From Alphaproteobacteria bacterium (GTDB lineage: Bacteria > Pseudomonadota > Alphaproteobacteria > GCA-2731375), in contig CBDDPY010000002.1 in assembly GCA_965232515.1 (NCBI GenBank), positions 6,528,001-6,592,000 on the forward strand: a DNA stretch of 64,000 nucleotides, given 5' to 3'. Positions 6,105-55,085 of this stretch are shown in pieces (the first letter of the stretch is position 1; each line of letters starts with the position of its first letter). The position numbers were made by a program, and so were the translations under genes. Below the pieces are notes generated by a model. The model saw nothing but the letters and a program-made list of their open reading frames with translations, had not been told where the DNA came from and did no database searches.

Positions 6105-7004
6105 TCAGTCGGTCTCGGCCGAGCCGGCGTAGATTTCAACTAAACGTGTTGGATCTTCGTCGGCCTGGCCACGGCCGGCCATCACCCGCATGATCTCGGC
6201 TGTCGTACTGGCGATCGGTAACGGGGCCTGTAGTTCCTTTGCCAGGTCGGTCGCCGTGTCGACGTCCTTCAACAGCGTGTAGAGCTGGCCCAGCAGCGGC
6301 TCGTACTGCCGGGCCGCCATGCGTGGCGCGAAGGTCTGCAGCGGTTTCGAGTCGCCCCAACCGCCGGCGAGTGCTTCCGCCAGCTGCGTCGCGTCGATGC
6401 CGGCGCGTTCGGCGAAGTTGACCGCCTCCGCGATCACGGCGATTGCCGTGCCGCTGATGATCTGATTGCAGAGCTTCGTGGTTTGGCCGGCGCCGCTGCC
6501 GCCCATATGCGTGAAGCGGCCGCAGAGGTTCATGACGACAGGCCGCACGCGCTCCACGGCTTCGGCGTCGCCGCCGCACATGATGGCGAGCGTGCCGTCG
6601 GCCGCCCCCTGCACACCGCCCGACACGGGCGCGTCGATCCAGGCCATGCCGCATTTGTCGGCCAGGCGTTGGGCGATATCGCGCGTGGTATCGGGCCGGA
6701 TGCTGGAGAAGTCGACGACGATCTTGCCGGCAGCCCCGCCGTCGGCGAGACCATCCGGCCCGAAGGCGACCTGCTCGGCCGCCGCCGCGTCGGTCACGCA
6801 CATCATCACGATCTCGGCGGCGCGCGCGACATCGGCGATGGTGTCGGCCGGCGTCGCGCCGGCGGCGACCAGCGGCTCGAGCTTCGAACGCGTGCGGTTC
6901 CACACCGTGACGTCGTAACCGGCCGCCAGCAGCCGTTGCGTCATCGGCCCGCCGATCAGGCCGGTGCCGATATAGCCGAGCGTCGGCTTCCCCGCGGCGC
7001 TCAT
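6105..7004 (-). CDS. NAD(P)-dependent oxidoreductase, 3-hydroxyisobutyrate dehydrogenase/tartronate semialdehyde reductase family
   Basis: [12 protein letters not shown] Rossmann motif, [25 protein letters not shown] at 7004 overlaps the upstream stop (ATGA). Confidence 0.9.
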
Positions 7005-8734
7005 TCCGCGTCGTCCCAGGGCCACTGCACGTTGCCGGCATGCGTCACCGCGCCCAGATTGGCGGGGCCGACCTGAGCCGCGTATTTCTCCAGCGTCCCG
7101 CCCAGGCTTCGCGGGTCCGGCGGCCGCCATGTGGCGCGCCGGCGGTCGAGCTCGGCCTCGCTCAGGTCGACGTCGATGGTGCCGGCCTCGGCATCGATGC
7201 GGATGCGGTCGCCGGTTTCGATCAGCGCGATGGGGCCGCCGGCCGCCGCCTCCGGGCAGACATAGCCGATCATCATGCCGCGGGTGGCGCCGGAGAAACG
7301 GCCGTCGGTCAGCAGCGCCACCTTCTCGCCCATGCCCTGGCCGTAGAGCAGCGCGGTGATGCCCAGCATCTCGCGCATACCAGGCCCGCCGCGCGGGCCC
7401 TCGTTGCGGATCACGATCACCGCGCCCGGCTCGTAGGCCATCTCGTGTAGGGTTTCGACACAGGCCTCCTCGTTCTCGAACACCAGCGCCGGGCCCTCGT
7501 GCACCAGCGATTGCAGGCCGGCGACCTTGATCAGCGCCCCGTCGGGCGCCAGGTTGCCGCGCAGCACCACGACGCCGCCGGTCGGCATGATCGCCGCGTC
7601 GGCGGTGCGCACGATGTCGCCGTCCGGCGTCGCGGCGGCGGCCGCAACCTCGGCGATGCTGCGGCCGGTTATGGTCGGGCAGTCGCCGTGCAGGTGGCCG
7701 CCGTCCAGCAGCGCTTTCAGGATCACCGACACGCCGCCGATCTCGAACACGTCCTTGGCGAGGTATTGCCCGCCGGGCTTCAGGTTGGCTAGCAGGGGCG
7801 TGCGCTGGAACACCTCGGCCACGTCGTCCAGCGTGAAGCGGATGCCGGCCTCGTGCGCGATGGCTGGGATGTGCAGGCCGGCATTGGTCGAGCCGCCGGT
7901 GGCGGCGACAACGGCGCAGGCGTTCTCCAGGCTTTCGCGCGTCACCAGGTCGCGGGGCAGGGGGCCGCCGTCCGCCAGCACGTCGGTCACGGCCTCGCCG
8001 GCCTTGCGCGCCAACGCCATGCGCTGGGCATAGACGGCCGGCAGCATAGCCGAGCCGGGCAGGGCCAGCCCCAGGGCTTCCGAGATCATCGCCATGGTGT
8101 TCGCCGTGAACTGGCCGGGGCAGGAGCCGATGGTCGGGTTGCACACCAGCTCCATGTCGTAGAGCTCGTCTTCCGTCATCTGCCCGGACATCACCGCGCC
8201 GACGCCCTCGTACGAATCCAGCGCCGTCACGGTCTTGCCGCGCCACGGCGCCGGCAGGGTGCTGCCGCCATACATGAAGACCGACGGCACGTTGCAGCGG
8301 ACCATGGCCATCATGATGCCGGGGAGCGTCTTGTCGCAGCCGCCGAAGCCGACCAGGCCGTCATAGCAATGCGCACGCATCACGGCTTCGATGGAATCGG
8401 CGATCAGTTCGCGGCTGACCAGGCTGAACTTCATGCCCTGATGGTTCATCGAGATGCCGTCGGACACCGAGATCGTGGTGAACTCGCGCGCCGTGCAGCC
8501 GCCGACCTCGACGCCGACCTTGGCCGCCGCCGCCTGCGGCCCCAGGCTCATGGAACATGGCGTGGTCTCGTTGTGCGTGCTGACGACGCCGATCATCGGC
8601 TTCTCGATGGCCTCGTCGTCCAGGCCCATGGCCCGCATGAAGGTGCGATGCGGCGTCCTGTCGAGACCCTGCCACGTGGTCCGCGATCGGAGCGGTTTTC
8701 CGGAAAATCGGTCGGTGGCGTGCTTTCGGCGCAT
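7001..8734 (-). CDS. ilvD: IlvD/Edd-family dihydroxy-acid dehydratase
   Basis: [58 protein letters not shown] and TDGRFSG motifs. AAGGA RBS. Actual substrate is uncertain. Confidence 0.9.
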
Positions 8735-9044
8735 GGCATTCCTTCGTGAACTTGACGTCATCCTTCCGCGCATCGTTCGGCGCGCCGGCACAGTCTAGCG
8801 CGGATTGACGCGACCCGTGGATTTGCTTGGAATTCCGCCATTTAGCCCGCGTTTCGTCGGACTGGCGATCAACAGAAAATTAATGGCGACGGCTCGATAA
8901 TTGATCGGTCAAATCGATGGTCAAGTGATTGATCAGAACAGGATCTGGTATTGGAGAGAAATTATTTCCAAATACTGAGATCTTTTTCGGGATTTCTGCG
9001 GAAACGCCTCGAAAAGCGCCCAAAGCGGCCATTTCCCTTCAGTT

Positions 9045-13810: not shown

Positions 13811-16654
13811 CTAGCCTTCGGAAAGCTGTTCCAGCAGAGCCTTCGCCTCGTCGGCGATGTCGCCGCCACGTCCGCTGTTCAACAAGGCCTGCAGTTTTTC
13901 CCTGGCCTCCGCCGTCCGGCCGAGTTTGCTAAGCGCCACGGCCAGATGGTAGTTGATGTTGGGATCGCCGGCGGCCCGTGCCTGCGCGTCGCGCAACAGC
14001 GTCAGCCCGCGGCTGACCTCGCCGCGCTGCACGAGGATCCAGCCGAGGGTATCGATCGCGTTGGCCTGGTTCGGGGCCAGCGCATAGGCCCGTTCCGCAT
14101 ATTCGAGGGCATCCGGATTGCCGGTCTTCTGGTAGAGCCAGGCGAGGTTGTTCAACACCACCGGATCGTTCGGTTGCAGTGCCAGCAGCTCTTCATTCAA
14201 GCTTACGGCTTCGTCGAGACGGTCGAGGCGGGCGTACTCGCCTGCCAAAGTGCGTTTGACGACCATGTCGTCGGGATGGCGATCCAGCCAATCCTGCAGC
14301 AGCTCCAGGGGCGGCGCGTTTCCGTCGGCGTCCCGCCGGGCGAGGTAAAGCCGCAATACCAGCACGCCGTCTTCCTGCTTCTTCAGGCCGCGTTCGTAGG
14401 CCACGGCGGCCTCCGCCGGGCGTTTCGCCCGCATCAGCACATCGCCCGCCAGCAGGTCGCCGGTCGCCAGTTCCGGATGCATCGTGCGGATGTCGTTGGC
14501 CCGCGCCAAAGCCTTGTCGATCTCACCCATACCGGCCTCCAGGCGGGTGATGCTGGCCTGTGCCGGCAGATATGTCGGATCGACAAAGACGGCGCGGCTG
14601 AGACTGTCGTAGGCGCCTTTGTTATCGCCCGCCTGCTGCTGCATCTGGGCAATGCGGTTCAGGTCCCGCGGCGACTCCCGCGCCACGTCCATCATGCGGC
14701 GGAGCTTGAGGATCGCCATGTCGATTTCATTGCTGGCAAGCGCCGCTCGGCTGACGGCCTCCAGCACCGCAAGGTTTTCCGTATTGTTGGCTTCCAGGCT
14801 GCGTGCCAGATGCAGCGCTTCCCGATAGTTCTTGGCGCGAATGTGCAGATCGACCAGTTGGATCTGCACCCGGAGCCCGCCCTGCGGCGTCGGACGAACC
14901 CGCTGCAGCCACTGGATGGCATCGGCCAGATCGCCACGGCGCTCGGCGATGTTGGCCAGCGCCAGCAAAGGGCCGTTTTCACCCAGTTGCCGATCGACCA
15001 GCGACAACAGGCGGGTCTCGGCGTCATTGAGATTGCCGCCGCGTATGTCCAGTTTCGCCAGATTGATATGCGCCGGCACGTAGTCCGGGTCGAGATCGGT
15101 CGCGGCCTCGAATCTTCGGCGAGCGGCATCCTCTTCGCCTTGGCCCCAGAGCGCGGCGCCGGCCAGGTTGAGACCGAACGGGTTGTCTGGATGGCGGTTC
15201 TGCAGGTCTTCGGCGATCGCCAGGGTTTGATCGTATTCGCGCCGTCTCAGCTGCATCAATCCGAGCATCATGGCGTGCTGCATGGAATCCGGCTCGCGGG
15301 CCAGCGCGGCCTCCAGACCGGCGATCGCCTGGTCCGGCTTTCCGGCCGCGATCTCGTTCAGGGCCAGCCGCGTGCGGAGCTGGTCCAGGTCCGGCGCCAG
15401 CTCGATCGCCCGCTCGAAGGCGGCGCTGGCTTCGGCATGTTCGCCGTTGCGCATCAAGGCGGTGCCGAACTGAGCCAGCAGGCGGGCGTCCTGGGTCTTC
15501 GGCCCGCTGATGGGCCGCAATACGCCGACGGCCCGATCGTTGTCGCCGCGCCTCATATAGAGCGAGGCCAGCATCCGGCGCGCCCCGACATGTTGCGGTT
15601 CCAGGTTCAAATACTGCTCGAGGTAAAACAGCGCGTCGCTCACCTCCTGCTGCGCGAAGTTGATCACGCCGGCCAGCAGCAACGTCGGCAGATGGCGGCG
15701 GATGAAGGCGGTGTCGTAATTTCGGATGATGTTGTCCGCCCGGCGCAGCGCTGCCTCGGCGCCGCGCGTGTCACCGGCGGCGCCCAGAATCAGTGAGTTG
15801 AAATAGATCGCCTGCGGATCGTCGGGCAGCAGCTCCAAGACGAAATCGATGTCCGCCTGGGCCTCGGCGTGACGGTTCAGGTCGATCAGCGCCGCCGCCC
15901 GGTTCCGGCGGGCGTCCAGATGATATGGTTGAATTGTCACGGCCTTGCCGTAGCTGGCGACGGCGCCGGCCAGGTCGCCCAAGCCGCGTTTGAGGTCGCC
16001 ATCCAGGCTCCAGCCGTCGGCATTGTCCGGTTCGAGCGCCAGGGCTTCGTCGATCTGCGCGCGGGCGCCGGCGAGGTCGCCACGGAAGATGGCAACCTCG
16101 GCCAATCCAAGCAGCGGGCTGGAGCTGCCGGATTGCAGACCGGCGGCGGCCATGTAGGCCATCTTTGCGGCATCCAGGTCGCGGATCGCGATATAGGCGG
16201 CGCCGCGCATGCTGTGAACCTGCTCCTCGATTTCAGGGCTACGCAGCCCCGACCTCACGATCTCCAGGACCTCTTCGTACTTGTGTTGCAGAATCAGCGC
16301 CTGCCCGAGGGGCACGACGATAATCGCTTCGTCACCACCGCCGCGCAGCGCCGCGATCAGCTCTTTTTCCGCCGTGGGGCCATCGCCGACTTCAAGATAG
16401 GCCCGGCCGATCAGGATCCGGGCGGCGAGGTTGCCGGGCTGATTCTTGAGGATGTTCTTGAGCTGGATGATGGCGCCGGGATAGTCGCCGTTGGCGAAGC
16501 GGACGGCGGCATCCTCGTAAAGGCTCGAGGCCGCCGCTTCGTCGCCGGCGTCCGATGTGTTGGCGACGGTGGCTGCGGGCATCGCGACACCGCCGGCGAG
16601 CAGGCCGGCGACGATCGCGGTGCGCAGCCATGCCGAAATCGAGAATCTAACCAT
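13811..16654 (-). CDS. prsT: PEP-CTERM system TPR-repeat protein PrsT (paralogue 1)
   Basis: About 950 aa of TPRs. N-terminal AIIQLKNILK...ARILIGRAYL...AEKEL and C-terminal LNNLAWLY...A...AERAY...DTLGWIL. Lies directly downstream of the PEP-CTERM gene. Confidence 0.88.
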   Translation of the reverse strand: MVRFSISAWLRTAIVAGLLAGGVAMPAATVANTSDAGDEAAASSLYEDAAVRFANGDYPGAIIQLKNILKNQPGNLAARILIGRAYLEVGDGPTAEKELIAALRGGGDEAIIVVPLGQALILQHKYEEVLEIVRSGLRSPEIEEQVHSMRGAAYIAIRDLDAAKMAYMAAAGLQSGSSSPLLGLAEVAIFRGDLAGARAQIDEALALEPDNADGWSLDGDLKRGLGDLAGAVASYGKAVTIQPYHLDARRNRAAALIDLNRHAEAQADIDFVLELLPDDPQAIYFNSLILGAAGDTRGAEAALRRADNIIRNYDTAFIRRHLPTLLLAGVINFAQQEVSDALFYLEQYLNLEPQHVGARRMLASLYMRRGDNDRAVGVLRPISGPKTQDARLLAQFGTALMRNGEHAEASAAFERAIELAPDLDQLRTRLALNEIAAGKPDQAIAGLEAALAREPDSMQHAMMLGLMQLRRREYDQTLAIAEDLQNRHPDNPFGLNLAGAALWGQGEEDAARRRFEAATDLDPDYVPAHINLAKLDIRGGNLNDAETRLLSLVDRQLGENGPLLALANIAERRGDLADAIQWLQRVRPTPQGGLRVQIQLVDLHIRAKNYREALHLARSLEANNTENLAVLEAVSRAALASNEIDMAILKLRRMMDVARESPRDLNRIAQMQQQAGDNKGAYDSLSRAVFVDPTYLPAQASITRLEAGMGEIDKALARANDIRTMHPELATGDLLAGDVLMRAKRPAEAAVAYERGLKKQEDGVLVLRLYLARRDADGNAPPLELLQDWLDRHPDDMVVKRTLAGEYARLDRLDEAVSLNEELLALQPNDPVVLNNLAWLYQKTGNPDALEYAERAYALAPNQANAIDTLGWILVQRGEVSRGLTLLRDAQARAAGDPNINYHLAVALSKLGRTAEAREKLQALLNSGRGGDIADEAKALLEQLSEG

Positions 16655-16818
16655 GCGGGATTCCTTGATTCTGGACCCGGTCATCGAATTTCACGCGAAG
16701 ATTTTCGCGTCAATATAGGCTCAATTTCTTTCGAAAATCGTGCCAACTCGATTGGCTGGCGACCGTCGTCGCGTCGGTTGGCGGCTGGATCGCCGTCGGA
16801 AATCGGCGTCCAAACGGA

Positions 16819-16880: not shown

Positions 16881-17657
16881 TCAGGCCTTCTGGCGCCGGC
16901 GCCGGTAAAGCGCCAGCCCGGCGAGACCGGTCAGCAGGATCGCCAGGGACTGCGGCTCGGTCACCCGCGTGGTCTTTTCGTACCCCATCAGGTTGTCCAC
17001 CGCGCCAGAGCCCTTGAACTTGACCTTCAGCTTGGCGACGTTCTTGCCAAGGTCGCCGAAGGTGAAGACACCGTGCTTGTGGTTGCCCGTCGGCGCCAGC
17101 TGCTGGGTCACCATCGGCGAGCCGTCGGCGTAGTAGATCTTCAGATAGGCGCGCTGGCTGTAATAGTTCTCGATGTCGAAGTAGTCGATCGACTTCAGGT
17201 GAGCCGGCGTGTCTTCGAAATCGAATGTCAGCCAGCTGCCGACGTCGTCATCCGGAATGATCGGGTCGTTGATACAGGTCGCGCTGCCGCCCGGACCGCA
17301 GGACGTGGTTCCGGATGTCGCTTGTTCCTGCACGATCAGGATATTGCCGAAATTCGTCGGGTTGTTCAGGAACGGGTGCGCGAGGTCGCTGTCGCCGTCG
17401 TTTGAGCCGCCGGGCGCGCCGGTGGTCGCGTTGTTGGTGTCAAAGGCCACGGCCAGGTTCGAGCCGTCGATACCGCCGATCGCGCTGATCACAACGCTGG
17501 TCGAACTGGCGCCCGGGATGCCCGACGCATACTGGTTGTTGACGATTTCGCCGCGCTGCAGCTCATTGAAATCGAGTGTCCAGTTGGCCGCCTGGGCCGA
17601 CGACGCCGCACCGGCGATCAAGCCCGCTGCCGCTACAAAACCAATCCACGTCCGCAT
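16881..17657 (-). CDS. PEP-CTERM-type sorting domain protein (VTEP variant)
   Basis: Signal peptide ending AQA, Gly/Asn/Asp-rich body, C-terminal VTEPQSLAILLTGLAGLALYRRRRQKA (motif, TM helix, basic cluster). Confidence 0.9.
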   Translation of the reverse strand: MRTWIGFVAAAGLIAGAASSAQAANWTLDFNELQRGEIVNNQYASGIPGASSTSVVISAIGGIDGSNLAVAFDTNNATTGAPGGSNDGDSDLAHPFLNNPTNFGNILIVQEQATSGTTSCGPGGSATCINDPIIPDDDVGSWLTFDFEDTPAHLKSIDYFDIENYYSQRAYLKIYYADGSPMVTQQLAPTGNHKHGVFTFGDLGKNVAKLKVKFKGSGAVDNLMGYEKTTRVTEPQSLAILLTGLAGLALYRRRRQKA

Positions 17658-17727
17658 CGGAAACCCCTCTTGGGAACTACATTACGCACAGGCGGACACA
17701 GAACGGTCACGCCACTGGCGATATTAA

Positions 17728-17743
17728 AGCAAATTCCGGGCCA
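17728..17743 (-). promoter_or_regulatory. sigma54 (-24/-12) promoter of the PEP-CTERM gene
   Basis: Minus strand TGGCCCGGAATTTGCT = GG-N10-GC with TTGCT, about 70 bp upstream of the ATG. Confidence 0.85.
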
Positions 17744-17761
17744 GGCAAGAAATTCTATTCA

Positions 17762-17774
17762 ATTCAATGGTTTA
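17762..17774. promoter_or_regulatory. IHF-like binding site
   Basis: attcaa-tggt-tta resembles WATCAANNNNTTR and lies between the sigma54 promoter and the enhancer-like sites. Confidence 0.55.
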
Positions 17775-17806
17775 GAAAATCCCGCATCGGGGAGCGGTTT
17801 GAAACT

Positions 17807-17958
17807 TGTAAAGTTTTCCGACACCAGATGTGACAGGTGCGTGTCCAAACGACGAAGGTAAGCTTAGCGGGTGGACACTAAGTTATTGTTCCTCAGATAA
17901 GTTTACATTCGTTAACCATATTTTTCGGTCCCGGATTCCGGTGTAAGAGAATCCGTCA
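17807..17958. promoter_or_regulatory. cluster of candidate PrsR enhancer sites (TGT-N11-ACA type)
   Basis: tgtaaagttttccgaca (17807-17823), half-degenerate cctcagataagtttaca (17891-17907) and tgtaagagaatccgtca (17942-17958). They resemble the TTTACA-containing motif described upstream of PEP-CTERM genes. Confidence 0.65.
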
Positions 17959-18055
17959 CAGCCGGAGCGTCGGCTGACACGGCCCCGGACGGATCATCCC
18001 GAATTGGGACGACCTGAGCCAGCTGTCTCGATTTGACGCAAATTTGCCGAAAATC

Positions 18056-18131
18056 TGGTAGGCGCGGAGAGGAATCGAACCTTCGACCTCTGCCATGTAA
18101 TGGCAGCGCTCTGCCACTGAGCTACGCGCCT
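18056..18131 (-). tRNA. tRNA-Val(UAC), atypical (extra nucleotide in T-arm, A32/U38)
   Basis: Cloverleaf: acceptor AGGCGCG/CGCGCCT, A73, encoded CCA; D-stem GCTC/GAGC; anticodon stem CTGCC/GGCAG with loop ATTACAT; T-loop TTCGATT; T-stem GAAGG versus CCTCTC. Confidence 0.85.
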
Positions 18132-18228
18132 CTGAGGCGGAATTTAGCGTCGTCTCCGCTGCGGGTGCAATGTCAATTCGACGACGGAATTGGCGCCGGC
18201 ATCACCTCGTTCGACCGCAGGGGCCGGA

Positions 18229-19023
18229 TCAGGGGTTCGGCGCCGGGAAGACCTCGTCCATGCGATCGAGCAGATGGTACGCAACCATGCCGATCCATTC
18301 ATGGGTGGCAAAATGCAGCATGCTGAGCCCGCCGGAGAGGCTGAACCGCATGCGAGGCCGCCGCCGCGATTTGTAATCCACCGGATACGGCTGGACTATC
18401 CAGCCGGCCTTTCGGAAAACCCCCATGGCGCGCGGCATATGAAATGCCGAAGTGACCAGCAGCCAACGTTCATCGTCCGTCGGTGCGACGAGGCGTTTGC
18501 TGTTCACGGCGTTTTCGAAGGTATTGCGCGATTCCGATTCGTAAATCACCCGGTCCGGCGGCGGGCCGATGGTTTCGAACAGGAAGCGCGCCACATCGGC
18601 CTCCGTCACCTTGCCGTTACCCAGCAGGGTCGCGTTGCCGCCGGTGAAGACGAGCTTGGCCTTGGGGTATCTGCGCGCCAGCGCGATGAATTCGGTCATC
18701 CGTTCGGCATGGCCGTTCAGCGCCGGCCGGCCATATTCGACCGTGCCCGCGACTCCGACCGCGCCGCCGAGGACGATGACGCCATCGACCTGGTCCGGCA
18801 GCGCATCCGGTGCCGGGAAACGCTGCTCCAGCGGCTGTATTAGCCAGTCGCCGAGCGGCAGGATCGCGATAACGACAAAACACAGCGTCACGACGGTCAT
18901 CAACCATTGGCCAATGCGACGCCAGGGGGTCAGGGCGAGCAGCAAGCCCAGCAGCAGCAGGAGCAGCAGAAGGTTCGCCGGCTGTGCGACGAGCCAGAAG
19001 ATCTTCGAAAGCGCGAACGTCAT
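18229..19023 (-). CDS. YdcF/ElyC (DUF218) family envelope protein
   Basis: PLEQRFP, VIVLGGA, FTGG, ESESRNTFENA, LVTSAFHMPRA and PYPVDY motifs. Confidence 0.92.
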   Translation of the reverse strand: MTFALSKIFWLVAQPANLLLLLLLLGLLLALTPWRRIGQWLMTVVTLCFVVIAILPLGDWLIQPLEQRFPAPDALPDQVDGVIVLGGAVGVAGTVEYGRPALNGHAERMTEFIALARRYPKAKLVFTGGNATLLGNGKVTEADVARFLFETIGPPPDRVIYESESRNTFENAVNSKRLVAPTDDERWLLVTSAFHMPRAMGVFRKAGWIVQPYPVDYKSRRRPRMRFSLSGGLSMLHFATHEWIGMVAYHLLDRMDEVFPAPNP

Positions 19024-19137: not shown

Positions 19138-20322
19138 ATGCGTCTCCTGACCTATTCAACGCTTTATCCCAACGCCGCACAGCCGAGCCACGGGGTTTTC
19201 GTCGAAAACCGCCTGCGGCATTTGATTGCGAGCGGCGAGGTCGAAAGCCGCGTTGTGGCGCCCGTGCCGTGGTTTCCCTCGGCGGCCGCGGGCTTCGGCC
19301 GCTATGCCAGCTATGCCGCCGCGCCGGACCGGGAGCAACGAAACGGCCTGACGATCGAGCATCCGCGATACCCGGTGATCCCGAAGATCGGCATGAGCGT
19401 GGCGCCGGGCCTACTCTATCGGTTCAGCCGCGCGGCGCTCGAGCGGCAACGCCGAGACGGTTTCGATTTCCAGCTCATCGATGCGCATTACTTCTACCCC
19501 GACGGCGTGGCCGCGGTCCTGCTCGGCCGCTATTTCAAGCGGCCGGTCGTGATTACGGCGCGCGGCACGGACCTCAACCTGATTCCAGACTATGCGCTGC
19601 CGCGGCGCATGATCCTATGGGCCGCGTCCCAAGCTGCCGGTATCGTCGCCGTCTGCCAGGCGCTGAAAGACCGGTTGGTCGAGCTCGGCGCCGACGCGGG
19701 CCGCATCACCGTGCTGCGCAACGGTGTCGATCTCGAGCTCTTTCGGCCGGTCGACCGGACCGCGGCGCGGCAGGCGCTCGGCCTGCAACGGCGTACGCTG
19801 CTGTCGGTTGGCGGGCTTATCCCGCGCAAGGCAAACGAGATTGCCATCCAGGCTCTGCCTGCGCTGCCCGATGTCGATTTCCTGCTGGCCGGCGAGGGCC
19901 CTGAGCGCGACGCGCTGACTCAGTTGGCGGCGAGCTTGGGTGTCGCCGATCGGGTGCGGTTTTTGGGCGCTGTCGCGCATGCCGACCTGCCGCGGATCTA
20001 TTCGGCCGCCGATGCGCTGGTTCTGGCTTCCAGTCGCGAGGGCTGGGCGAATGTGCTGCTCGAGGCCATGGCCTGCGGGACGCCGGTGATCGCATCCGAC
20101 GTCTGGGGCACGCCGGAGGTCGTGGCCGCGCCCGCCGCCGGCGTGCTGATGCCGTCGCGAACGCCGGCCGGCCTGTCGGCCGCGTTCGACCAGCTGTTTG
20201 CGGACCAGCCGTCACGGTCCGAAACCCGGGCTTATGCCGAGCAGTTTGACTGGGAGGCGACGACGAGGGGGCAGCTCGGCCTGTTCGACGGCATCCTTCG
20301 GCGTGCGGCGGAGACCGGTTAA
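19138..20322 (+). CDS. glycosyltransferase family 4 (TuaC-like)
   Basis: YSTLYPN...HGVFVENRL, IDAHYFYPDGVAA, TARGTD, SSREGWANVLLEAMACGTPV. Confidence 0.92.
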   Translation: MRLLTYSTLYPNAAQPSHGVFVENRLRHLIASGEVESRVVAPVPWFPSAAAGFGRYASYAAAPDREQRNGLTIEHPRYPVIPKIGMSVAPGLLYRFSRAALERQRRDGFDFQLIDAHYFYPDGVAAVLLGRYFKRPVVITARGTDLNLIPDYALPRRMILWAASQAAGIVAVCQALKDRLVELGADAGRITVLRNGVDLELFRPVDRTAARQALGLQRRTLLSVGGLIPRKANEIAIQALPALPDVDFLLAGEGPERDALTQLAASLGVADRVRFLGAVAHADLPRIYSAADALVLASSREGWANVLLEAMACGTPVIASDVWGTPEVVAAPAAGVLMPSRTPAGLSAAFDQLFADQPSRSETRAYAEQFDWEATTRGQLGLFDGILRRAAETG

Positions 20323-21632
20323 ACCGACGTTCGCGCCGTTCCTGGCACCGGCGTCGGCGGCATGGCGGGATGCACGAAGGCCCTGGTCTTCGCCTTCAGC
20401 TCTTTCGATACGATCACCCGCACGATAGCCGTGATCGCGACCAGCGCCAGATACATGTCGTAGTAGGCCAGCGACAAGGCGGCGCCGGCAACCAGATAGC
20501 CGGCCAGGCTCACCTCCATCATGCGCCCGAGATCGTGCGCCCAGGCGAGTTCCGGACTGCCGCGGGTATGCTTGACGATCCAGCGGCTGTTGCGCCAGGT
20601 CATGAAGGCGATCGACATGAACAGGATCAGGCCGGGATACCCATGGTCGGCGAGTGCTTCGAAGTAGATGCTGTGGATCGCCCGCGCGCGCGTCACCACG
20701 TCGCTGTATTTCGCAAAGACCTCTTGCCGCTCGTATGAGCGGAATCCGACCCCGGTCAGTGGCTTCCTCTTGGCGATTTCGATGGCCGTATCCCACATCA
20801 CCAGCCGGCCCTGGAATGACGAGTCCTCCTCGGTATTGCCGATCGTGTTGATGCGGTCGAAATACTTCTGCGGCATGGCCAGCAGGCCGACAATCACGAC
20901 GAGCGCAATAACCAGCGCGCCGATGAACTTACCCTTCGATCGCCACCAATAGACCATGCCCATCATCGTCAGGCCGATGAAGCCGCCGCGCGAATAGCTG
21001 CCGATGACGGCGAAAATGGTCATGAACATGACCGCCACCAGCGCCAGGCGGACCCATTTGTTGGCGGAATGCAGACGCAGATAGTTGATCAATGGGATCG
21101 TCATGATCAACGCCGCGGCCAGATGGTTGTTGTCGTAGATCATCGAGTTCGCGGGGCCGAAGATGGCGTATTTGCCGCCCGACAGGATCATGAAACCGCT
21201 GCCCTTAACCGACCAGTAGCAGAGCGACACCACGATCACCCAGATCATGGCGTGCACGCGGATACGGTTGTTCATCAGGCCCAGGATCGCCATCACCAGG
21301 ACCATCGATTTCATGGTGCGGTCCCAGATCGCATAGGCCGACCGGTCATACTCAGCCAGATAGGTGGTCAGGGACATATGCAGGGCGAAAATGATCAGCA
21401 GGAACGTGATCGGCGTCTTCGGTACTTTCAGCGGCTCTTTCGAGAACAGCCAGGCGCCCAGCGTGACCACGGCGATGATCATGTTGAACTCGAAGTGCGT
21501 GGTGCCGCCCCAGGCCTCGCGATGCGGGTTCATGAAGGCGAGCCAGCTCCAGATCATGACGCCGATCTGCGGCATCTTCAGCGCCGGCAGCACCATCACG
21601 AAAAAGGCCATCATCAATAGGATGCTGCGCAT
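20319..21632 (-). CDS. putative O-glycosylation ligase, exosortase A system-associated (O-antigen ligase family)
   Basis: W..FMNPHREAWG, SVKGSGF...GG, DNNHLA, GSYSRGG, DSSFQGR..MW, AIHSIYFEALADHGYPGL; many TM helices. Confidence 0.88.
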   Translation of the reverse strand: MRSILLMMAFFVMVLPALKMPQIGVMIWSWLAFMNPHREAWGGTTHFEFNMIIAVVTLGAWLFSKEPLKVPKTPITFLLIIFALHMSLTTYLAEYDRSAYAIWDRTMKSMVLVMAILGLMNNRIRVHAMIWVIVVSLCYWSVKGSGFMILSGGKYAIFGPANSMIYDNNHLAAALIMTIPLINYLRLHSANKWVRLALVAVMFMTIFAVIGSYSRGGFIGLTMMGMVYWWRSKGKFIGALVIALVVIVGLLAMPQKYFDRINTIGNTEEDSSFQGRLVMWDTAIEIAKRKPLTGVGFRSYERQEVFAKYSDVVTRARAIHSIYFEALADHGYPGLILFMSIAFMTWRNSRWIVKHTRGSPELAWAHDLGRMMEVSLAGYLVAGAALSLAYYDMYLALVAITAIVRVIVSKELKAKTRAFVHPAMPPTPVPGTARTSV

Positions 21633-21828
21633 CTGCGAACTCGTCTCCGCTTGCGGTGCCGCTTCTGCCCGCCTGCGGGCATGGTCAAGCGGCGGCGGCA
21701 CACCAATATACTAACAAACCGGCGGACTGCCGTCGTCTGATCGTCGTGTCGTGCCTGTCTTCGCCTGGAATATGGTTCTGACATTATTAACGCATTGAAA
21801 AGATGATCGTTGTCACAGGCGATGCCGG

Positions 21829-25255: not shown

Positions 25256-26413
25256 CTATGGGGTTGCGGCGTCCCCCGTCGCGACCCGCTTCAGCGCCCG
25301 CAGCACATCTTTAAGCCTGACCTTCAGTGTCGGCCGCTCCAGCACAATCGCCAGCATGTCGGCGCCGGGCGATCCGAGACTGGTCTTGTAGCGGTTTTCG
25401 CCGGCCATGAAATCATAGGTGTCGGCGCCGGCGGCCAGGTGACGGTCGATGCACAGATAGTGGCTGACCATGCCGGGTTTCAGCTTCGGGTCGGCCTCGT
25501 AGGCAAAGCCGCTGAGATAGTAGTAGACGCGACCGCGATAGATGAAGTTGTACAGGTAGCCGATCGGTGCGCCGCCGGCCGAAATACGCACGACCTCAAC
25601 CGTGCCGGCGGGCAGGCAATGCGCGATCAAGGCGCGATGGAAGCGCACGAAAAACGGATAGGCGAAAGCGCCCGGCTCACCGCGGCCGGTCCAATAGCGT
25701 TGATGCAGAACGCTGAGTTCGTCCAGGAAGCCGAGCGCTTCGTCGATGCCGCTGGCGCAGGTCAATTCCAACGGACCGCGTTCCTCGTACAGACGCATGG
25801 CCCGCCGGATCTGATAGCGCGTATTCGCGCTCAGATGCTCGAGGTAGGGCTTGCCGGACCGGCGCACGGCCGTCAGGTCGACGGCGCCCGAAGGGTCGTG
25901 CGCCAGCAGCCGCACCCGATAACCAAGGTCCCGGGCCAGATCGCGATAGGATGCCGGCACGCCACGGATGCACAACTCGTCCCAGTGGACCGAACGGTGC
26001 ACCGGCGAGGCGCCGTCGTTGAATGCTTTCAGACAGGCGCGAGTCACCTCGGCGGCCACGTTGCGGTCGGCGAGAATACCGTTGTATTCGATGGTTATGA
26101 TGTCTTTTTGCGGGTCTCCGGTTTCGTTCACGAACAACTCGGTCGAGGTGAACCAGCCGAACCGACGTGTCGTCGAGACCAAAAGCGCCAGCCCGACGAT
26201 CGTGCCGCCCTGCCGCGCCGTCAGCAGCTGCGGTCGATCGTCGATCGTCGACAGCCAGCAGTCGACCCATTGCCATGAATGAAAGAACGTCGTGTCGGCC
26301 CGCGCTTCCAGGTCTTGCCAATCGGTCGCCAGCGCTGCCCGATCGGTGAGGGGCGCCACGGACACGATTATCTCCGCGCTATCCTCGGCCGACATTTGTT
26401 GCGGAGTTGCCAT
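25256..26413 (-). CDS. GNAT-fold acyltransferase (CelD/BcsL-like)
   Basis: WQDLEARA..TFFHSWQW, YLEHLSANTRYQIRRA, YYLSGF, KPGMVSH, YDFMAGENRYK. Confidence 0.85.
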   Translation of the reverse strand: MATPQQMSAEDSAEIIVSVAPLTDRAALATDWQDLEARADTTFFHSWQWVDCWLSTIDDRPQLLTARQGGTIVGLALLVSTTRRFGWFTSTELFVNETGDPQKDIITIEYNGILADRNVAAEVTRACLKAFNDGASPVHRSVHWDELCIRGVPASYRDLARDLGYRVRLLAHDPSGAVDLTAVRRSGKPYLEHLSANTRYQIRRAMRLYEERGPLELTCASGIDEALGFLDELSVLHQRYWTGRGEPGAFAYPFFVRFHRALIAHCLPAGTVEVVRISAGGAPIGYLYNFIYRGRVYYYLSGFAYEADPKLKPGMVSHYLCIDRHLAAGADTYDFMAGENRYKTSLGSPGADMLAIVLERPTLKVRLKDVLRALKRVATGDAATP

Positions 26414-33106: not shown

Positions 33107-34404
33107 CCGCACGCCCGCGGCTGCTGTTTATTTCACCGCAGTTCCTGTTTCCGACCGACGCCGGCGGCAAGATCCGCACCACCAATGTCCTGCGGGGCAT
33201 GAAGGGTGGCAGCTTCGAGATCACGCTGGCCTCGCCGGCCCAACCCGATGAGGCGGCGCGTCACGCCGACGATCTGGCGGCCGTCTGCGACCGGTTTGTC
33301 GATTGGCCGTTTCATCGCCAAGGCAAGTCGTTCGGCTTGCGGCGGCTGTCGTTCTTGTTGTCGTCCCTGCCTGTCGCGGTGGCCTGCGACCGTTCCGCCG
33401 CCGGCATGGCGGCGATCCGGGCCGAGCTGTCGCGTGGATACGATCTGGTTGTCACCGACTTCGTGCACGCGGCCGTGCTGACGCCACCCGAACTGTCGGC
33501 CGCGTCGGTACTGTTCACCCACAATGTCGAGGCCGAGATCTTCGCCCGGCATGTGGATGTTGCCGACAATCCTGTCAGCCGCGCGGTCTGGCGCGACCAG
33601 TGGCGCAAGATGAAGCGGTTCGAGCAGTCGGCGTTGCGGCGGTTCGATACCGTGATCGCGGTCTCGGAACGCGATGCCGCGCAGTTCCGGGAACACTATG
33701 GCGTGTCGTCGGTGGAGCCGATCCCGACGGCCGTGGACCTGGACTTCTTCGATTTCCGGGCGCCGCCGGACGGTCCGCCCCAGGGCGGCACCATCGTCTT
33801 CACCGGATCGATGAACTGGGCCGCCAATATCGATGGCATCGAGTTCTTCATGGACTCGATCTGGCCGGCGATTGCGCAGGCAGCACCGGCGGCGAACGTC
33901 GTCGTGGTCGGCCGCAATCCGCCGACCCATCTGGTCGAGCGGGCGAACAAGCGCGGCTTGCCCTGGACCTTCACGGGTTTCGTCGACGACATCAGGCCCT
34001 ATGTGCACGACGCGCAGGTCTATGCCATTCCGCTGCGGGTTGGTGGCGGCACCCGGATCAAGGTCTACGAAGCCATGGCCATGGGATGCCCGGTGGTCTC
34101 GACCACGATCGGCGTGGAGGGGCTGCCGCTCGATGACGGTCGGCACTACACCTGCGCCGATACGGCCGATGCCTTCGCCGCCGAAGTGCTGCGTCTGCTG
34201 GCCGACGCGGACTTGCGCCAACGCTTGGCGACGACCGCGCGGGCCTATGTCGAGGAGAACTTCAGCGCGCCCGGCGTCGCCCGCATTTTCGAGCGCATCT
34301 GCGAACAGACCATGGAGCTTCGGCGTATCAGCGCGGGTGGCGGCGCAGCAGATCTTTTAGCGCCGGGCCTAGCAGGTGCCGCGCGGCGGCAGCCAGACCT
34401 CTGA
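33103..34404 (+). CDS. glycosyltransferase family 4
   Basis: PTDAGGKIRT, FTHNVEAEI, FTGSMNWAANIDG, PLRVGGGTRIKVYEAMAMG. GTGA overlap with the upstream stop. Confidence 0.9.
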   Translation: MTARPRLLFISPQFLFPTDAGGKIRTTNVLRGMKGGSFEITLASPAQPDEAARHADDLAAVCDRFVDWPFHRQGKSFGLRRLSFLLSSLPVAVACDRSAAGMAAIRAELSRGYDLVVTDFVHAAVLTPPELSAASVLFTHNVEAEIFARHVDVADNPVSRAVWRDQWRKMKRFEQSALRRFDTVIAVSERDAAQFREHYGVSSVEPIPTAVDLDFFDFRAPPDGPPQGGTIVFTGSMNWAANIDGIEFFMDSIWPAIAQAAPAANVVVVGRNPPTHLVERANKRGLPWTFTGFVDDIRPYVHDAQVYAIPLRVGGGTRIKVYEAMAMGCPVVSTTIGVEGLPLDDGRHYTCADTADAFAAEVLRLLADADLRQRLATTARAYVEENFSAPGVARIFERICEQTMELRRISAGGGAADLLAPGLAGAARRQPDL

Positions 34405-35542
34405 ACCGACGGGGATTGCACGCCAGGATACCCCAGCGCTCGCGGCGCTCGGACAGCCAGTCCTGCTTGTAGCCGTCGTCGCCGCGGCCGAAATCGACTT
34501 CCGCCACGCGGTCGACCTCCAAGGCATGCCGCATCATCCGTGCCGTCAGCACAGTGCCAAGCGAAAGCCGGCGGTACCGCTCGACGTAGGCCAGCTTGAA
34601 GATGGTTGAACGACCCTCGTGGGTCAGCCAGATTTGCGCCGCCGCGGGTGCGCCGTCCAGATGGCAGATCCCCAAACGCAGCACGCCGTTGGCCGCCGCA
34701 TGTCGCGCCAAACCTGGCGTGAACTCGGGGAACGGCTCCGCCGTCTTCCAGCTCGCCGCGTAAATCGCATCGTAGCTCGCCATCGCCGTATCGAGCTCGG
34801 CCGGCGTCTGACAGATGTCGACGCGGACGTCGTGGGCTTTCGCCAGTTGCCGCTGCTTGCGCAAGATCGTGTTGCGCAGGCGCGACGGCCGCCGCGCGAG
34901 ATAGTCGTCAAAGCTCAGCTCGGCGACATCTTCGAACCAGTTACCGAAGTGGAAGTACGGCCGCGACGGCCAGCCGCGTGCGCGGATCGCCGCGACCAGC
35001 GCGTCGAAAAGCGGCGCCTCGCGGGGCAGGGTATCGAGCTGCAGGACGTCCGGCTTGCTGGCATCCGTCGTCATCGCGTCGACCAACTGACGGCACGCCC
35101 GCGCGATGTCGACGCCGGGTCGCGTCAGGGCCTCGAAGCTGCAGGAATAAAAGTTCGTCAGGCCCGAGATCGCCCGGGCGCCGGGAAACAGATTCGATGC
35201 GGTATGGCGCTTGGCCGGCAGGGCCGCAAATGTGGTCCCGTCGGCCTCCCTCGCGCTGAAGACCACAGCGTCTTCGCCGGCCGCCAGGCAGGTCTCGGAC
35301 AGGTTCCGAAACCAGTCGGGATGCGCATAGTAGGTGGGCGCGGCACACTGCGCGAAGAGCGGCGCATAGACGGATGCCAACGCCGTCAAATCATCCTGTG
35401 GCGTCGTTCCCGGCGGAGATGGCGGGTGCGGACTCGCGTTGCTGGAAATCAATTCGTCGTCGTCCGCTGCCGATTGCAATCGCGCCAGCTCGGTCAGGTA
35501 ACGCCATCGGGTGCGGCCGGCACGGCTGGCCCGGATACGCAA
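34328..35542 (-). CDS. GNAT-fold acyltransferase (CelD/BcsL-like); true start probably downstream of 35542
   Basis: GLTNFYSC, YFHFGNW, YLARRPSRLRNTI.RK, YAASWK..EPFPEF, AAAQIW, FKLAY, VDFGRGDDGYKQDW. Confidence 0.82.
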   Translation of the reverse strand: MRIRASRAGRTRWRYLTELARLQSAADDDELISSNASPHPPSPPGTTPQDDLTALASVYAPLFAQCAAPTYYAHPDWFRNLSETCLAAGEDAVVFSAREADGTTFAALPAKRHTASNLFPGARAISGLTNFYSCSFEALTRPGVDIARACRQLVDAMTTDASKPDVLQLDTLPREAPLFDALVAAIRARGWPSRPYFHFGNWFEDVAELSFDDYLARRPSRLRNTILRKQRQLAKAHDVRVDICQTPAELDTAMASYDAIYAASWKTAEPFPEFTPGLARHAAANGVLRLGICHLDGAPAAAQIWLTHEGRSTIFKLAYVERYRRLSLGTVLTARMMRHALEVDRVAEVDFGRGDDGYKQDWLSERRERWGILACNPRRFRGLAAAARHLLGPALKDLLRRHPR

Positions 35543-35708: not shown

Positions 35709-36329
35709 ATGACGAAAACTTCTTTCTTCTCTGGCCGTGGCCTGGTGCTGGCGGCGGTCGTTATGTTGGTCGCGGCCTGTTCGGGCCGGGAATTGGCGCC
35801 AACGATCACCGAAGAGCAGGCGACGCCCGATTATCTGATCGGCGCTGGCGACAACTTGAGCGTTTTCGTCTGGCGCAACCCGGAGTTGGGCATTTCGCTA
35901 CCCGTGCGGCCGGACGGAAAGATTTCCTCGCCGCTGATCGAGGACCTGCAGGCGGCCGGCAAGACGCCGACGCAGCTGGCTCGGGATATCGAGGAGGAGC
36001 TCAAGAAGTTCATCCAGGACCCGATCGTCACCGTTATCGTGACCGGCTTTGTCGGTCCCTTCGACCAGCAGGTGCGCGTCGTGGGCGAGGCGGCCCAACC
36101 GGCGGCCATTCCCTATCGGGACGACATGACCGTCCTTGACGTCATGATCTCCGTTGGCGGTCTGACCCAGTTCGCCGCCGGCAATCGGACCGTGGTCGTG
36201 CGGCAGATCGAAGGCCAGAACAAGAGCTTCCGGGTGCGGCTGGACGACCTGTTGAAGGACGGCGATGTCAGCGCGAATGTGGAAATGCTGCCCGGCGACG
36301 TGGTGATCGTGCCCCAGAGCTTTTTCTAA
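35709..36329 (+). CDS. polysaccharide export lipoprotein (Wza-like), XrtA/PEP-CTERM system
   Basis: Lipobox VAAC, YLIGAGDNLSVFVWRNPEL, VRPDGKIS.PL, GGLTQFAAGN, PQSFF end. Confidence 0.92.
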   Translation: MTKTSFFSGRGLVLAAVVMLVAACSGRELAPTITEEQATPDYLIGAGDNLSVFVWRNPELGISLPVRPDGKISSPLIEDLQAAGKTPTQLARDIEEELKKFIQDPIVTVIVTGFVGPFDQQVRVVGEAAQPAAIPYRDDMTVLDVMISVGGLTQFAAGNRTVVVRQIEGQNKSFRVRLDDLLKDGDVSANVEMLPGDVVIVPQSFF

Positions 36330-36383
36330 AAGCGCTTAAAGACATCATTTATGTGTGTGCGGTAGCGTGATCACTTTGTGTGA

Positions 36384-36399
36384 TGTGATTGCTGTCACA
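36384..36399. promoter_or_regulatory. CRP-family consensus box TGTGA-N6-TCACA
   Basis: tgtga-ttgctg-tcaca, an exact core match in the AT-rich intergenic gap; a -10-like TATAAG lies at 36423-36428. Confidence 0.6.
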
Positions 36400-36477
36400 T
36401 TAATGCCTAACTGACTTTGGATTATAAGTTCCCTTTCCGGCGCCGGCCGGACCGAACCGATCCAAGGAAAGATTGAG

Positions 36478-38094: not shown

Positions 38095-39182
38095 GTTCGG
38101 AAGCCAGAGTGCCAGGCTTGATCCAGCGGGCCGCCGACCACGTTCGGTCCGGCGGCGGCGCGTCGCTGGTCGAGAAAGCGGCAAAGCGAATTGCCGCATC
38201 GGGCGGACCGCAACCCGTGACGGCCGATGCCGCGGCCGCGCCGGCGGTGCCGGCCGCGCCGCTTCCGACCGAGCCGGCCACCGTACCCCGCCCGCCCGTG
38301 GCCGAGGTATCGCCGCCGGCGAATGAGGCGCCGCAACCCGCGGCCGCGAAGCCGCGCCCGGCCGCCCCTGCCGACGAGCCGACGCCGTTCACGCCCGAGC
38401 GGACCGCGGCGGCGCCTGCGAGGGAGAGCCAGGGCGGCCGCCGGGCCGATGTGGTGCAGATCGATCAGGTACGCCTGCAGCTCGCCGGCTGCATCGTGCC
38501 GTCGGGCGAACGCACCCGCATTGTCGAAGAGTTTCGCATCGTCAAGCGGCCGCTTCTGCTCAAGGCGTTTGCGACCGGCGATCAAAGAACGCGCAACGGC
38601 AACCTGATCATGGTGACCAGCGCCCGTCCGGGCGAGGGCAAGTCGCACACGGCGGTCAATCTGGCCATGAGCATGGTCTCCGAGCGCGACCTGAACGTTC
38701 TTCTGGTCGATGCCGACATGCACAACACCAGCGAATACTCATCGATGGGCATGATGGGCGTGAACGCGGAGAAGGGCCTGCTCAATGTGGTCGCGGATCC
38801 CTCCACGGATCTTGCCGACGTCCTGCTCAGGACGGATATCCCGAACCTGACGTTGCTGCCGGCCGGGACGAACGTGATGAACCCGACCGAGCTGCTGGCC
38901 AGTAACCGTATGGGTCAGCTCGTCGAGGAGCTCGCCGAACGTTATCCGGACCGGGTCATCATTATCGACACCCCGCCGGTCCTGGCGACCAGTGAGCCGA
39001 GCGTGCTCGCCATGCATGTCGGCCAGCTTCTGTTTGTGGTCGAGGCAGAGAAGACCAGCCAGAAGGCCATCGAGTCGGCGTTGGCGCTATTGGGTGGCTG
39101 CCAAAACATCAACCTCGTGTTAAATAAAGCCAAGATGGAGGTCGGCGGCGACCGGTTCGGCGCCTATTCGTATTACTATTGA
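38091..39182 (+). CDS. XrtA-associated tyrosine autokinase (split Wzc kinase)
   Basis: EEFRIVKRPLL, Walker A TSARPGEGKS, VLLVDAD, IIDTPPVL, C-terminal Tyr cluster YSYYY. Confidence 0.92.
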   Translation: MSSEARVPGLIQRAADHVRSGGGASLVEKAAKRIAASGGPQPVTADAAAAPAVPAAPLPTEPATVPRPPVAEVSPPANEAPQPAAAKPRPAAPADEPTPFTPERTAAAPARESQGGRRADVVQIDQVRLQLAGCIVPSGERTRIVEEFRIVKRPLLLKAFATGDQRTRNGNLIMVTSARPGEGKSHTAVNLAMSMVSERDLNVLLVDADMHNTSEYSSMGMMGVNAEKGLLNVVADPSTDLADVLLRTDIPNLTLLPAGTNVMNPTELLASNRMGQLVEELAERYPDRVIIIDTPPVLATSEPSVLAMHVGQLLFVVEAEKTSQKAIESALALLGGCQNINLVLNKAKMEVGGDRFGAYSYYY

Positions 39183-39241
39183 CTTCCCGCGGCCGCTGAG
39201 TGAAGTTGCGCGTTAATCTATCAGTCGGGTGTCATTGGACA

Positions 39242-40726: not shown

Positions 40727-40738
40727 TTTCAGCCCGCT

Positions 40739-46624: not shown

Positions 46625-46670
46625 CGGTCGTCGAGCCCACTGGTCCGGTCGCCTCGGGGATGATGAGCGC

Positions 46671-51529: not shown

Positions 51530-51550
51530 GATGAGCCCAGAGGCACGGCC

Positions 51551-53656: not shown

Positions 53657-53657
53657 G

Positions 53658-55031: not shown

Positions 55032-55085
55032 TCGGCGGCACAGCGATCCGCCGCAGCAACATCAATGGATTGAGAGACTGGAACT

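Follow-up and report, generated by a model that had tools for sequence, protein, structure and literature searches.

We report here an extra tRNA-Val-like gene in a 64,000-nucleotide stretch of DNA from an alphaproteobacterium (assembly GCA_965232515.1, contig CBDDPY010000002.1, positions 6,528,001 to 6,592,000); "the window" denotes this whole stretch. The gene occupies positions 18056-18131 of the minus strand and lies in an XrtA/PEP-CTERM locus, which encodes exosortase XrtA, PrsK, PrsR, two PrsT proteins, EpsB_2, an export protein, a polysaccharide deacetylase, an amidotransferase, an O-glycosylation ligase and a FemAB-like protein of the TIGR03019 family. All of these XrtA-system genes score above the cut-offs of their NCBIfam models, which bears out the location that the original prediction had given for the tRNA. 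The gene is real, it is spare, and it is linked to XrtA/TIGR03019 loci.

ARAGORN calls the gene at 18056-18131 (-) as tRNA-Val(tac), and Rfam RF00005 matches it at 18060-18130 (-) with 48.3 bits against a gathering score of 29. Written as RNA, its 76 nt read AGGCGCG UA GCUC AGUGGCA GAGC G CUGCC AUUACAU GGCAG and, 3' of this last element, AGGUC GAAGG UUCGAUU CCUCUC CGCGCCU A CCA. They provide a 7-bp acceptor stem beginning with A1-U72, a 7-nt D-loop, a 5-nt variable loop, A73 and an encoded CCA. The anticodon stem CUGCC/GGCAG carries the loop AUUACAU (18095-18101, anticodon at 18097-18099), that is, A32, U33, U34-A35-C36, A37 and U38. The T-stem is irregular. Its 3' strand CCUCUC (18067-18072, -) offers 6 nt to the 5-nt GAAGG, where a canonical elongator tRNA-Val has a regular 5-bp stem, and the bulge is an extra C at position 18069, between pairs 51-63 and 50-64. 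ARAGORN, Rfam and the sequence thus agree with the full cloverleaf, A73, CCA and valine anticodon UAC that had been noted earlier, and the 6 nt (CCTCTC in DNA) opposite GAAGG and the A32/U38 of the loop can be read directly from the sequence. For the window tRNA alone, ViennaRNA returns a minimum free energy of -32.9 kcal/mol for a fold that is not a cloverleaf, whereas the bulged cloverleaf comes to -26.6 and a model that places the additional base at the junction of T-stem and acceptor stem to -25.7. We take the minimum free energy to be uninformative for a single tRNA, and the placement of the extra nucleotide therefore rests on the comparative pairing counts given below. Pattern scans found no sigma-70-like promoter or terminator around the tRNA, and the sigma-54 -24/-12 pattern had no site upstream of it and was not enriched in the window (66 matches versus 72 expected).

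The tRNA sits between a DUF218/ElyC-like gene just upstream (18229-19023, -; PF02698, with a weak match to the ElyC model) and a 258-amino-acid open reading frame (ORF) with a PEP-CTERM-like tail just downstream (16881-17657, -), all three on the same strand, and it adjoins a GT4 glycosyltransferase gene, here called GT4a (19138-20322, +). Orthologues of GT4a stand beside the tRNA in genomes G001, G002, G019 and G061/G369 and in metagenome loci. Residues 208-255 of the 258-amino-acid product weakly match the end of the XDP1 model. The ORF is 88% identical and syntenic in G001, and the resemblance of its C terminus to a PEP-CTERM tail makes it a likely exosortase substrate. A sigma-54-like -24/-12 match with one mismatch is found about 72 nt upstream of this ORF (17729-17743, -). 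Farther along lie a PrsT paralogue, the tetratricopeptide repeat lipoprotein of XrtA systems (13811-16684, -; TIGR02917, 634.8 bits), and the exosortase A-associated putative O-glycosylation ligase (20319-21701, -; TIGR03097, 433.6 bits). Two Fem-like GNAT paralogues follow at 25256-26413 (-; PF13480, 120 bits; G000:C2:6553385-6553825) and at 34328-35542 (-; PF13480, 105 bits), the latter divergent from the export gene. The head of the XrtA exopolysaccharide operon (35709-41923, +; Pfam and TIGR03027) consists of the export protein, a chain-length determinant, an AAA_31 kinase-like protein, an outer membrane barrel and an AAA_22 ATPase. The XrtA-system polysaccharide deacetylase (41790-42746, +; TIGR03006, 440.8 bits) comes directly upstream of the FemAB-family XrtA/PEP-CTERM protein (42743-43795, +; TIGR03019, 477.8 bits). 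This protein, the product of the third PF13480 Fem-like gene of the locus, is the candidate enzyme to use the tRNA. Exosortase XrtA with an EpsI domain and the XrtA-system amidotransferase (45053-48617, +; TIGR03109 and TIGR03108) are followed by the EpsB_2 priming glycosyltransferase, PrsK, PrsR and the other PrsT paralogue (50108-57908, +, with PrsT at 55086-57908; TIGR03013, TIGR02916, TIGR02915 and TIGR02917). The tRNA does not look like the integration site of an island. No integrase family was present among the flanking ORFs scanned, and no second copy of its 3' 26 nt occurs in the window at up to 3 mismatches, in line with the absence of an integrase and of an att duplication stated in the original prediction.

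A base-call error in the tRNA is excluded, because two contigs from sequencing runs are free of indels there. One is an independently built Logan contig of 26 kb from run X1 (perhaps the source sample); it extends over 17500-18700 and has a single insertion, outside the tRNA. The other, 189 nt long, comes from run X4, an RNA library of a related strain, and matches 18051-18239 with an identical tRNA. The insertion in the X1 contig is an extra C behind window position 17982, an intergenic site between the PEP-CTERM ORF and the tRNA. Contigs of the RNA libraries X4 and X8 cover parts of the stretch; such contigs cannot show transcription, starts or ends, and the X4 contig serves here as sequence support only. 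Runs X1 and X3 also contain a second 76-nt homologue of the tRNA, with 7 differences and no gaps. Its flanks differ, and its depth is about 19-fold that of the contig of the window. This depth and these flanks indicate that the tRNA family is also carried by a second, more abundant organism of these samples.

The source genome (G000; 7.39 Mb, 65.5% G+C, 58 ARAGORN tRNA calls) possesses a separate canonical tRNA-Val(UAC) at C2:1478497-1478572, beside tRNA-Asp, as well as tRNA-Val(CAC) and tRNA-Val(GAC). Because the canonical set is complete, the window tRNA is a fourth, spare gene of the valine type. The three canonical tRNAs score 66.9-68.9 bits with RF00005 versus 48.3 for the window tRNA. 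Canonical tRNA-Val(CAC) and tRNA-Val(GAC) are likewise present in the carrier genomes G049-G053, in which a BLAST search with canonical Val(CAC) at E<=1e-5 found almost nothing and was repeated with Val(GAC) at E<=0.01. In the source genome the canonical tRNA-Val(UAC) and tRNA-Asp are only about 470 nt apart; in genome G008 a second XrtA paralogue lies between these two tRNAs (G008:C5, L307, 10183-15514). A further ARAGORN call in the window, a 90-nt tRNA-Thr(ggt) at 7854-7943 (+), falls within an ORF at 7001-8791 (-), has no Rfam tRNA match and is probably a false positive.

Searching 41 related genomes by BLAST with the 76 nt recovered full-length close copies in G001 (97% identity, same genus), G002 (92%) and G019 (90%), and a copy is present in 4 of the 33 genomes of the bacterial family. 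These copies are nearly identical to the window tRNA except in the anticodon loop. G002 and G019 have GACGG/CCGCUC in place of GAAGG/CCUCUC, a compensatory A51C/U63G change beside which the extra C is kept. All the anticodon loops differ, reading AUUACAU, AGCACAU, UUUACCU and the 8-nt CGUUACUC. The loop of G001 departs from that of the window only at positions 33-34 (UU to GC), giving G33, and those of G002 and G019 are the most aberrant.

For a wider collection, metagenome contigs were scanned with a pattern fixing nucleotides 1-25 only, which gave at least 118 stretches, and species-representative genomes were scanned for both ends of the acceptor stem. The matches listed are a lower bound, and relatives with another acceptor stem or D-arm are not captured by a search that fixes the first 25 nt; the tRNA counts that follow are counts among the matches listed. 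We parsed 127 tRNAs. Of these, 38 are regular Val(GAC) tRNAs, a class defined by U33 and GAC, so that U33 in 38 of 38 follows from the definition; three otherwise regular Val(GAC) tRNAs with C33, from metagenome contigs L199, L232 and L263, were set apart as "other". Class A, with a 6- or 7-nt 3' strand of the T-stem, has 63 members including the window copy. Class B has 20, with a GGGGG/CCUUC T-stem containing two G-U pairs and often a 4-nt variable loop. At least 82 relatives therefore have abnormal T-stems (62 of class A and 20 of class B, the window copy excluded, and three rows labelled "atyp?", with cut or unparsed 3' ends, left out). The irregularity recurs in several bacterial families and many metagenome contigs, and the bulge, whose conservation the original prediction had proposed to test, is kept in relatives. 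That all 62 class A relatives have an extra base is true by class definition, and independent support comes from the pairing. The bulged base is C, U, A, G or two U's.

Alignment of the 56 distinct atypical sequences, in which columns 1-25 are fixed by the search, showed that 99.9% of 1156 cells form standard pairs in the bulged cloverleaf. Changes on both sides were observed in all five anticodon-stem pairs and in T-stem pairs 49-65, which alternates between GC and AU, and 51-63, which occurs as GC, AU and CG. None of 500 shuffles reached the observed pairing, and controls with slid partners gave 42-64%. An alternative placement of the extra nucleotide at the junction of T-stem and acceptor stem was rejected, as it leaves fewer cells of the T-helix paired (93.5% versus 99.6% for the bulge); in the AGGGG and GGGGG subgroups both models fit owing to G-U pairs.

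The anticodon loop behaves differently from the stems. It has 7 nt in 79 of the 82 atypical members and 8 nt in the other three. Within the 7-nt loops A35 and C36 are invariant (79/79 each), and U33 occurs in 39, the rest having G (19), C (17) or A (4) at this position. C34 is found in 49 loops, U34 in 22 and A34 in 8, yielding the anticodons CAC, UAC and AAC, and position 37 is a purine in 72 of 79. Positions 32, 33, 34, 37 and 38 all vary, and for 8 of 42 tRNA bodies there are between two and four loop variants. The constraint on U33 and a purine at 37 that marks a canonical elongator tRNA-Val is thus missing from the family, although the window copy itself has U33 and A37. A73 is invariant in all 56 distinct sequences, G45 is kept in at least 90% of the aligned sequences, and G20 is absent (C or U at this position). 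The main valine identity elements are A35, C36 and A73, with G45 and G20 as minor ones (PMC9976931), and the family retains all of the main set. With nearly complete pairing, compensatory changes and variation confined to the loop, these genes do not have the character of pseudogenes. The structure of the window tRNA is under purifying selection, and its anticodon loop is not under decoding constraint. The simplest reading of an invariant A35/C36/A73 in a drifting loop is selection for folding and for recognition by valyl-tRNA synthetase (ValRS), with the constraint of codon reading lifted.

We then asked where the family occurs by tblastn of the window proteins against every collected tRNA locus, scoring an XrtA-system marker in the same contig piece. 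Such a marker accompanies 16 of 20 class B loci and 8 of the 19 class A loci with GAAGG, GACGG, GGAGG or GGCGG T-stems ("A_other"), and none of the 38 regular Val(GAC) loci of the same scan. The synteny with XrtA loci that the original prediction had proposed as a check is therefore found in relatives of both classes. The class B tRNA stands at the operon head between a divergent EpsB_2 gene and the export gene, which in 16 of 20 loci follows on the same strand at about 100-250 nt. In the two loci long enough to judge (L190 and L241), the class B operon continues through the deacetylase, TIGR03019 and XrtA. The GGAGG type lies between EpsB_2 and PrsK, and the window type beside the GT4a orthologue. 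In G002 (L150, 10711-12768) and G019 (L151, 9251-11220) a conserved gene pair, one SprA-related (PF12118) and one VanZ-like, comes after the tRNA, in the place held in the window by the PEP-CTERM ORF. The SprA-related ORF of G002 shows no similarity to the 258-amino-acid ORF of the window. The remaining class A subgroup ("A_hk"; AGGGG, AAGGG, AGAGG or GGGGG) has a different genomic setting, to which we return below. An MBL-fold gene 3' of the A_hk tRNA was considered as an RNase Z and dismissed, as it gave weak matches to lactonase models and no RNase Z model appeared.

In an even sample across the class, 5 of 401 genomes carry the tRNA pattern, namely G000, G203 and three species that share a genus. 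In each of the five, TIGR03019 lies on the contig of the tRNA at a distance of 21-42 kb, compared with TIGR03019 in 47 of 396 non-carriers (E<=1e-40). The statistical weight of this association is modest because the five carriers represent three lineages. TIGR03019 occurs in 51 of the 401 genomes in total, counting G275, which is flagged unpublished and on which nothing else here depends, and the 5 of 52 TIGR03019 genomes found with the tRNA are a lower bound, since the first 25 nt were fixed in the search. Among 13 carrier genomes examined individually, 10 have a TIGR03019 match, the exceptions being G002, G019 and G052. Three of the four A_hk genomes have TIGR03019 and an exosortase elsewhere in the genome, and both are present in G049, G050, G051 and G053. 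In two genomes TIGR03019 is spread over several frames, two in G369 (G369:C9:155642-156626) and four in G240 (G240:C3:216712-217674), which could reflect assembly frameshifts or gene decay.

The protein encoded at 42743-43795 belongs to the FemAB family by its TIGR03019 score (477.8 bits against a cut-off of 260) and by its predicted FemX-like dupli-GNAT fold. Its only sequence match in the PDB is Staphylococcus aureus FemX (6snr, E 1.5e-5). A single-sequence AlphaFold model was poor (mean confidence, pLDDT, 36.6), and we used instead an AlphaFold2 model based on 54 homologues (pLDDT 94.9). The 15 best Foldseek matches of this model in the PDB are all aminoacyl-tRNA-dependent transferases (TM-score 0.53-0.69), including Weissella FemX, S. 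aureus FemX, FmhB, the peptide synthases Sba18/Sbb17, FemA and aminoacyl-phosphatidylglycerol synthases of the MprF type. The model shares the dupli-GNAT architecture with FemX/FmhB and Sba18/Sbb17 (TM-score 0.63-0.69, Foldseek E about 1e-15) at a sequence identity of only 12-18%, and the PDB entries of Sba18/Sbb17 are complexes with streptothrisamine, an amino-sugar compound. By its modelled fold, the TIGR03019 protein may be an aminoacyl-tRNA-dependent transferase. The 3' end of the gene for the XrtA polysaccharide deacetylase runs into the TIGR03019 gene, and this overlap hints at a two-step reaction in which an N-acetyl sugar would first be deacetylated and then N-aminoacylated. Our literature search found no paper on the TIGR03019 subfamily and none linking PEP-CTERM or exosortase with tRNA or FemAB in the texts searched, which did not include supplements; the words "tRNA" and "aminoacyl" are absent from the main text of the founding PEP-CTERM paper.

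The explanation that we favor, and to which we give an even chance on the sequence evidence, is that ValRS charges the window tRNA, which then evades EF-Tu and the ribosome and serves as valine donor for one of the Fem-like transferases encoded in the locus. The tRNA would be transcribed together with the glycan locus and then charged by ValRS, which we propose because the valine identity set is kept. The T-stem bulge and the unconstrained anticodon loop would keep the resulting Val-tRNA from EF-Tu and the ribosome. The sequence-specific contact with EF-Tu is set by T-stem pairs 49-65, 50-64 and 51-63 (PMC3239215), and the bulge falls amid these pairs. Finally, the TIGR03019 dupli-GNAT protein, or one of the two PF13480 paralogues, would take over the valyl group and transfer it to an amine of the glycan or to another surface acceptor.

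The closest precedent is found in staphylococci, where three additional tRNA-Gly species have a low affinity for EF-Tu and the ribosome and are favored as donors by FmhB, FemA and FemB. The features responsible map to the D and T arms, the anticodon stem has an additional pair, and such non-proteogenic tRNAs had, according to the authors, been detected so far only in S. aureus and S. epidermidis (PMC7826273). Like these tRNA-Gly NP1-3, the window tRNA is an extra paralogue beside a proteogenic set and keeps its synthetase identity. Arms are altered in both, the D and T arms there and the T-arm by a bulge here. The extra anticodon-stem pair there leaves a 5-nt loop, as A32-U38 could do here, and the staphylococcal tRNAs are linked with transferases of the Fem family in the synthesis of a surface polymer, which compares with the Fem-like genes in the locus here. 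The differences are that the amino acid would be valine instead of glycine, that the bacteria are Gram-negative Alphaproteobacteria and the setting an exopolysaccharide/exosortase locus instead of peptidoglycan synthesis, and that here the T-stem has a bulged nucleotide, TTC is kept in the T-loop, and the anticodon loop drifts. The window tRNA agrees with canonical bacterial tRNA-Val in its cloverleaf, in A73, A35-C36 and G45, and in an acceptor stem similar to that of the genome's own Val(GAC) and Val(CAC); it differs by A1-U72, an additional nucleotide in the 3' strand of the T-stem and a D-loop of 7 nt that lacks G20 and, at the level of the family, by the lack of conservation of U33 and of a purine at 37 and by the occurrence of AAC anticodons. 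Valylatable viral tRNA-like structures are charged by ValRS via elements of the A35/C36 type and do not decode (PMC9976931). As in the valine-accepting tRNA-like structure of TYMV, elements of ValRS recognition would here be kept free of decoding constraint, provided that the window tRNA is indeed charged. Unlike the viral elements, which are pseudoknotted 3' ends of viral genomes, it is a free-standing cloverleaf gene on a bacterial chromosome.

A number of observations weigh against a donor role in a Fem-like pathway. The window copy, with U33 and A37, has a loop compatible with decoding, and it lies 24.6 kb from TIGR03019, adjoining a glycosyltransferase gene and not a Fem gene. The A_hk subgroup, the largest of all, had an XrtA-system marker in 0 of 43 loci and lies beside a canonical tRNA-Val(CAC) in 22 of 43, as close as 28 nt. 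The co-occurrence of tRNA and Fem gene is incomplete and one-sided. Neither TIGR03019 nor a strong PF13480 gene is present in the tRNA carriers G019 (95% complete) and G002 (83% complete), and G052, a fragmentary genome, also lacks TIGR03019. Conversely, 9 of 10 inspected XrtA/TIGR03019 loci contain no tRNA within 20 kb on either side, the tenth having regular-looking Met and His tRNAs 14-20 kb away, and the XrtA/TIGR03019 loci of G003 and G008, from the same bacterial family, are without the tRNA. Since most XrtA/TIGR03019 loci do without it, the tRNA would be an accessory, like the special tRNA-Gly among Fem-using bacteria. Related loci are not independent, so that the counts overstate the support. 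The proposal of the original prediction, an EF-Tu-evading donor for the FemAB-like protein, is partly supported, in that the first part gains from the pattern of a chargeable, non-decoding tRNA (invariant A35/C36/A73 with positions 32-34 and 37-38 free), and the choice of partner is favored by a fold like that of aminoacyl-tRNA-dependent transferases and disfavored by G002, G019 and the many TIGR03019 loci without a tRNA.

Other explanations must be weighed against this one. The tRNA could be a minor isoacceptor, ordinary in function though odd in form, that takes part in translation, reading for instance rare GUA/GUG codons, and be situated in the locus by descent or as a means of tying the expression of locus genes to tRNA supply, like bldA. 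The window copy has what such a tRNA requires (U33, UAC, A37, A73, CCA and a score above the Rfam threshold), and U33 is not absolute even among otherwise regular Val(GAC) tRNAs, 3 of 41 of which lack it. Nevertheless, we consider this account unlikely, given the G33 of the G001 copy, the retention of U33 in only 39 of 79 loops, the drift of the anticodon among CAC, UAC and AAC, the three 8-nt loops, and a T-stem irregularity that is conserved instead of repaired in the presence of canonical Val tRNAs. Ranking next, and also improbable, is a tRNA-shaped RNA in a non-donor role, either as a processing site for RNase P and RNase Z or as a sensor or regulator of valine charging that couples exopolysaccharide synthesis to nutrients. 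The leader position that 16 of 20 class B copies occupy ahead of the same-strand export gene would suit this role, as would the location of the window copy, flanked on its strand by the DUF218 gene and the PEP-CTERM ORF and with no sigma-70-like promoter or terminator found around it, and the persistence of the tRNA in G019 and G002 without a Fem gene. A processing signal, however, needs no invariant A35, C36, A73 and encoded CCA, and the positions within the locus differ between subgroups, one of which is wholly outside it.

It is also conceivable, at a lower probability again, that the tRNA donates valine to an aminoacyl-tRNA-using activity other than TIGR03019, or that it is charged with an amino acid other than valine. 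Consistent with another recipient, the tightest neighbor in the window's subgroup is the GT4a glycosyltransferase and not a Fem gene, the locus holds two more PF13480 paralogues, and two carriers lack TIGR03019; yet no other aminoacyl-tRNA-using family appeared among the scanned locus ORFs, and the identity elements kept are those of valine. The original prediction had held a decaying tRNA or a base-call error to be equally possible. Neither fits the data, and a pseudogene or assembly error is now the least probable account by far. The lower Rfam score in comparison with canonical Val tRNAs and the 8-nt loops of some copies would agree with decay. Against it stand the contigs of runs X1 and X4, one from an independent assembly and one from a related strain, without an indel in the tRNA; the compensatory changes in almost completely paired stems; an irregularity shared by several bacterial families and many metagenome contigs; and substitutions that are concentrated in five loop positions instead of being scattered.

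By analogy, the donor role may be extended to a more specific and rather doubtful proposal, in which the XrtA/PEP-CTERM systems of some Alphaproteobacteria would be a Gram-negative counterpart of the staphylococcal pathway of tRNA-Gly, FemXAB, pentaglycine and sortase, with a valyl amine as the nucleophile for exosortase. A dedicated valyl-tRNA that avoids the ribosome would feed the FemAB-like transferase, the valyl group would be placed on a sugar amine freed by the neighboring deacetylase, and exosortase would join PEP-CTERM proteins to the resulting free amino group.

In conclusion, if the window tRNA acts as a donor, it would represent a second, independently evolved lineage of non-ribosomal donor tRNA, with a new amino acid, a new structural signature (a T-stem bulge with a free-running anticodon loop) and a new setting in Gram-negative exopolysaccharide loci. 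As a naturally occurring tRNA, probably charged and yet kept from decoding, it may be of interest for the engineering of orthogonal tRNAs. For the biology of PEP-CTERM systems, it would provide a handle on the role of the FemAB-like protein and on the chemical group to which exosortase attaches its substrates, which is predicted to be valine on an amino sugar.

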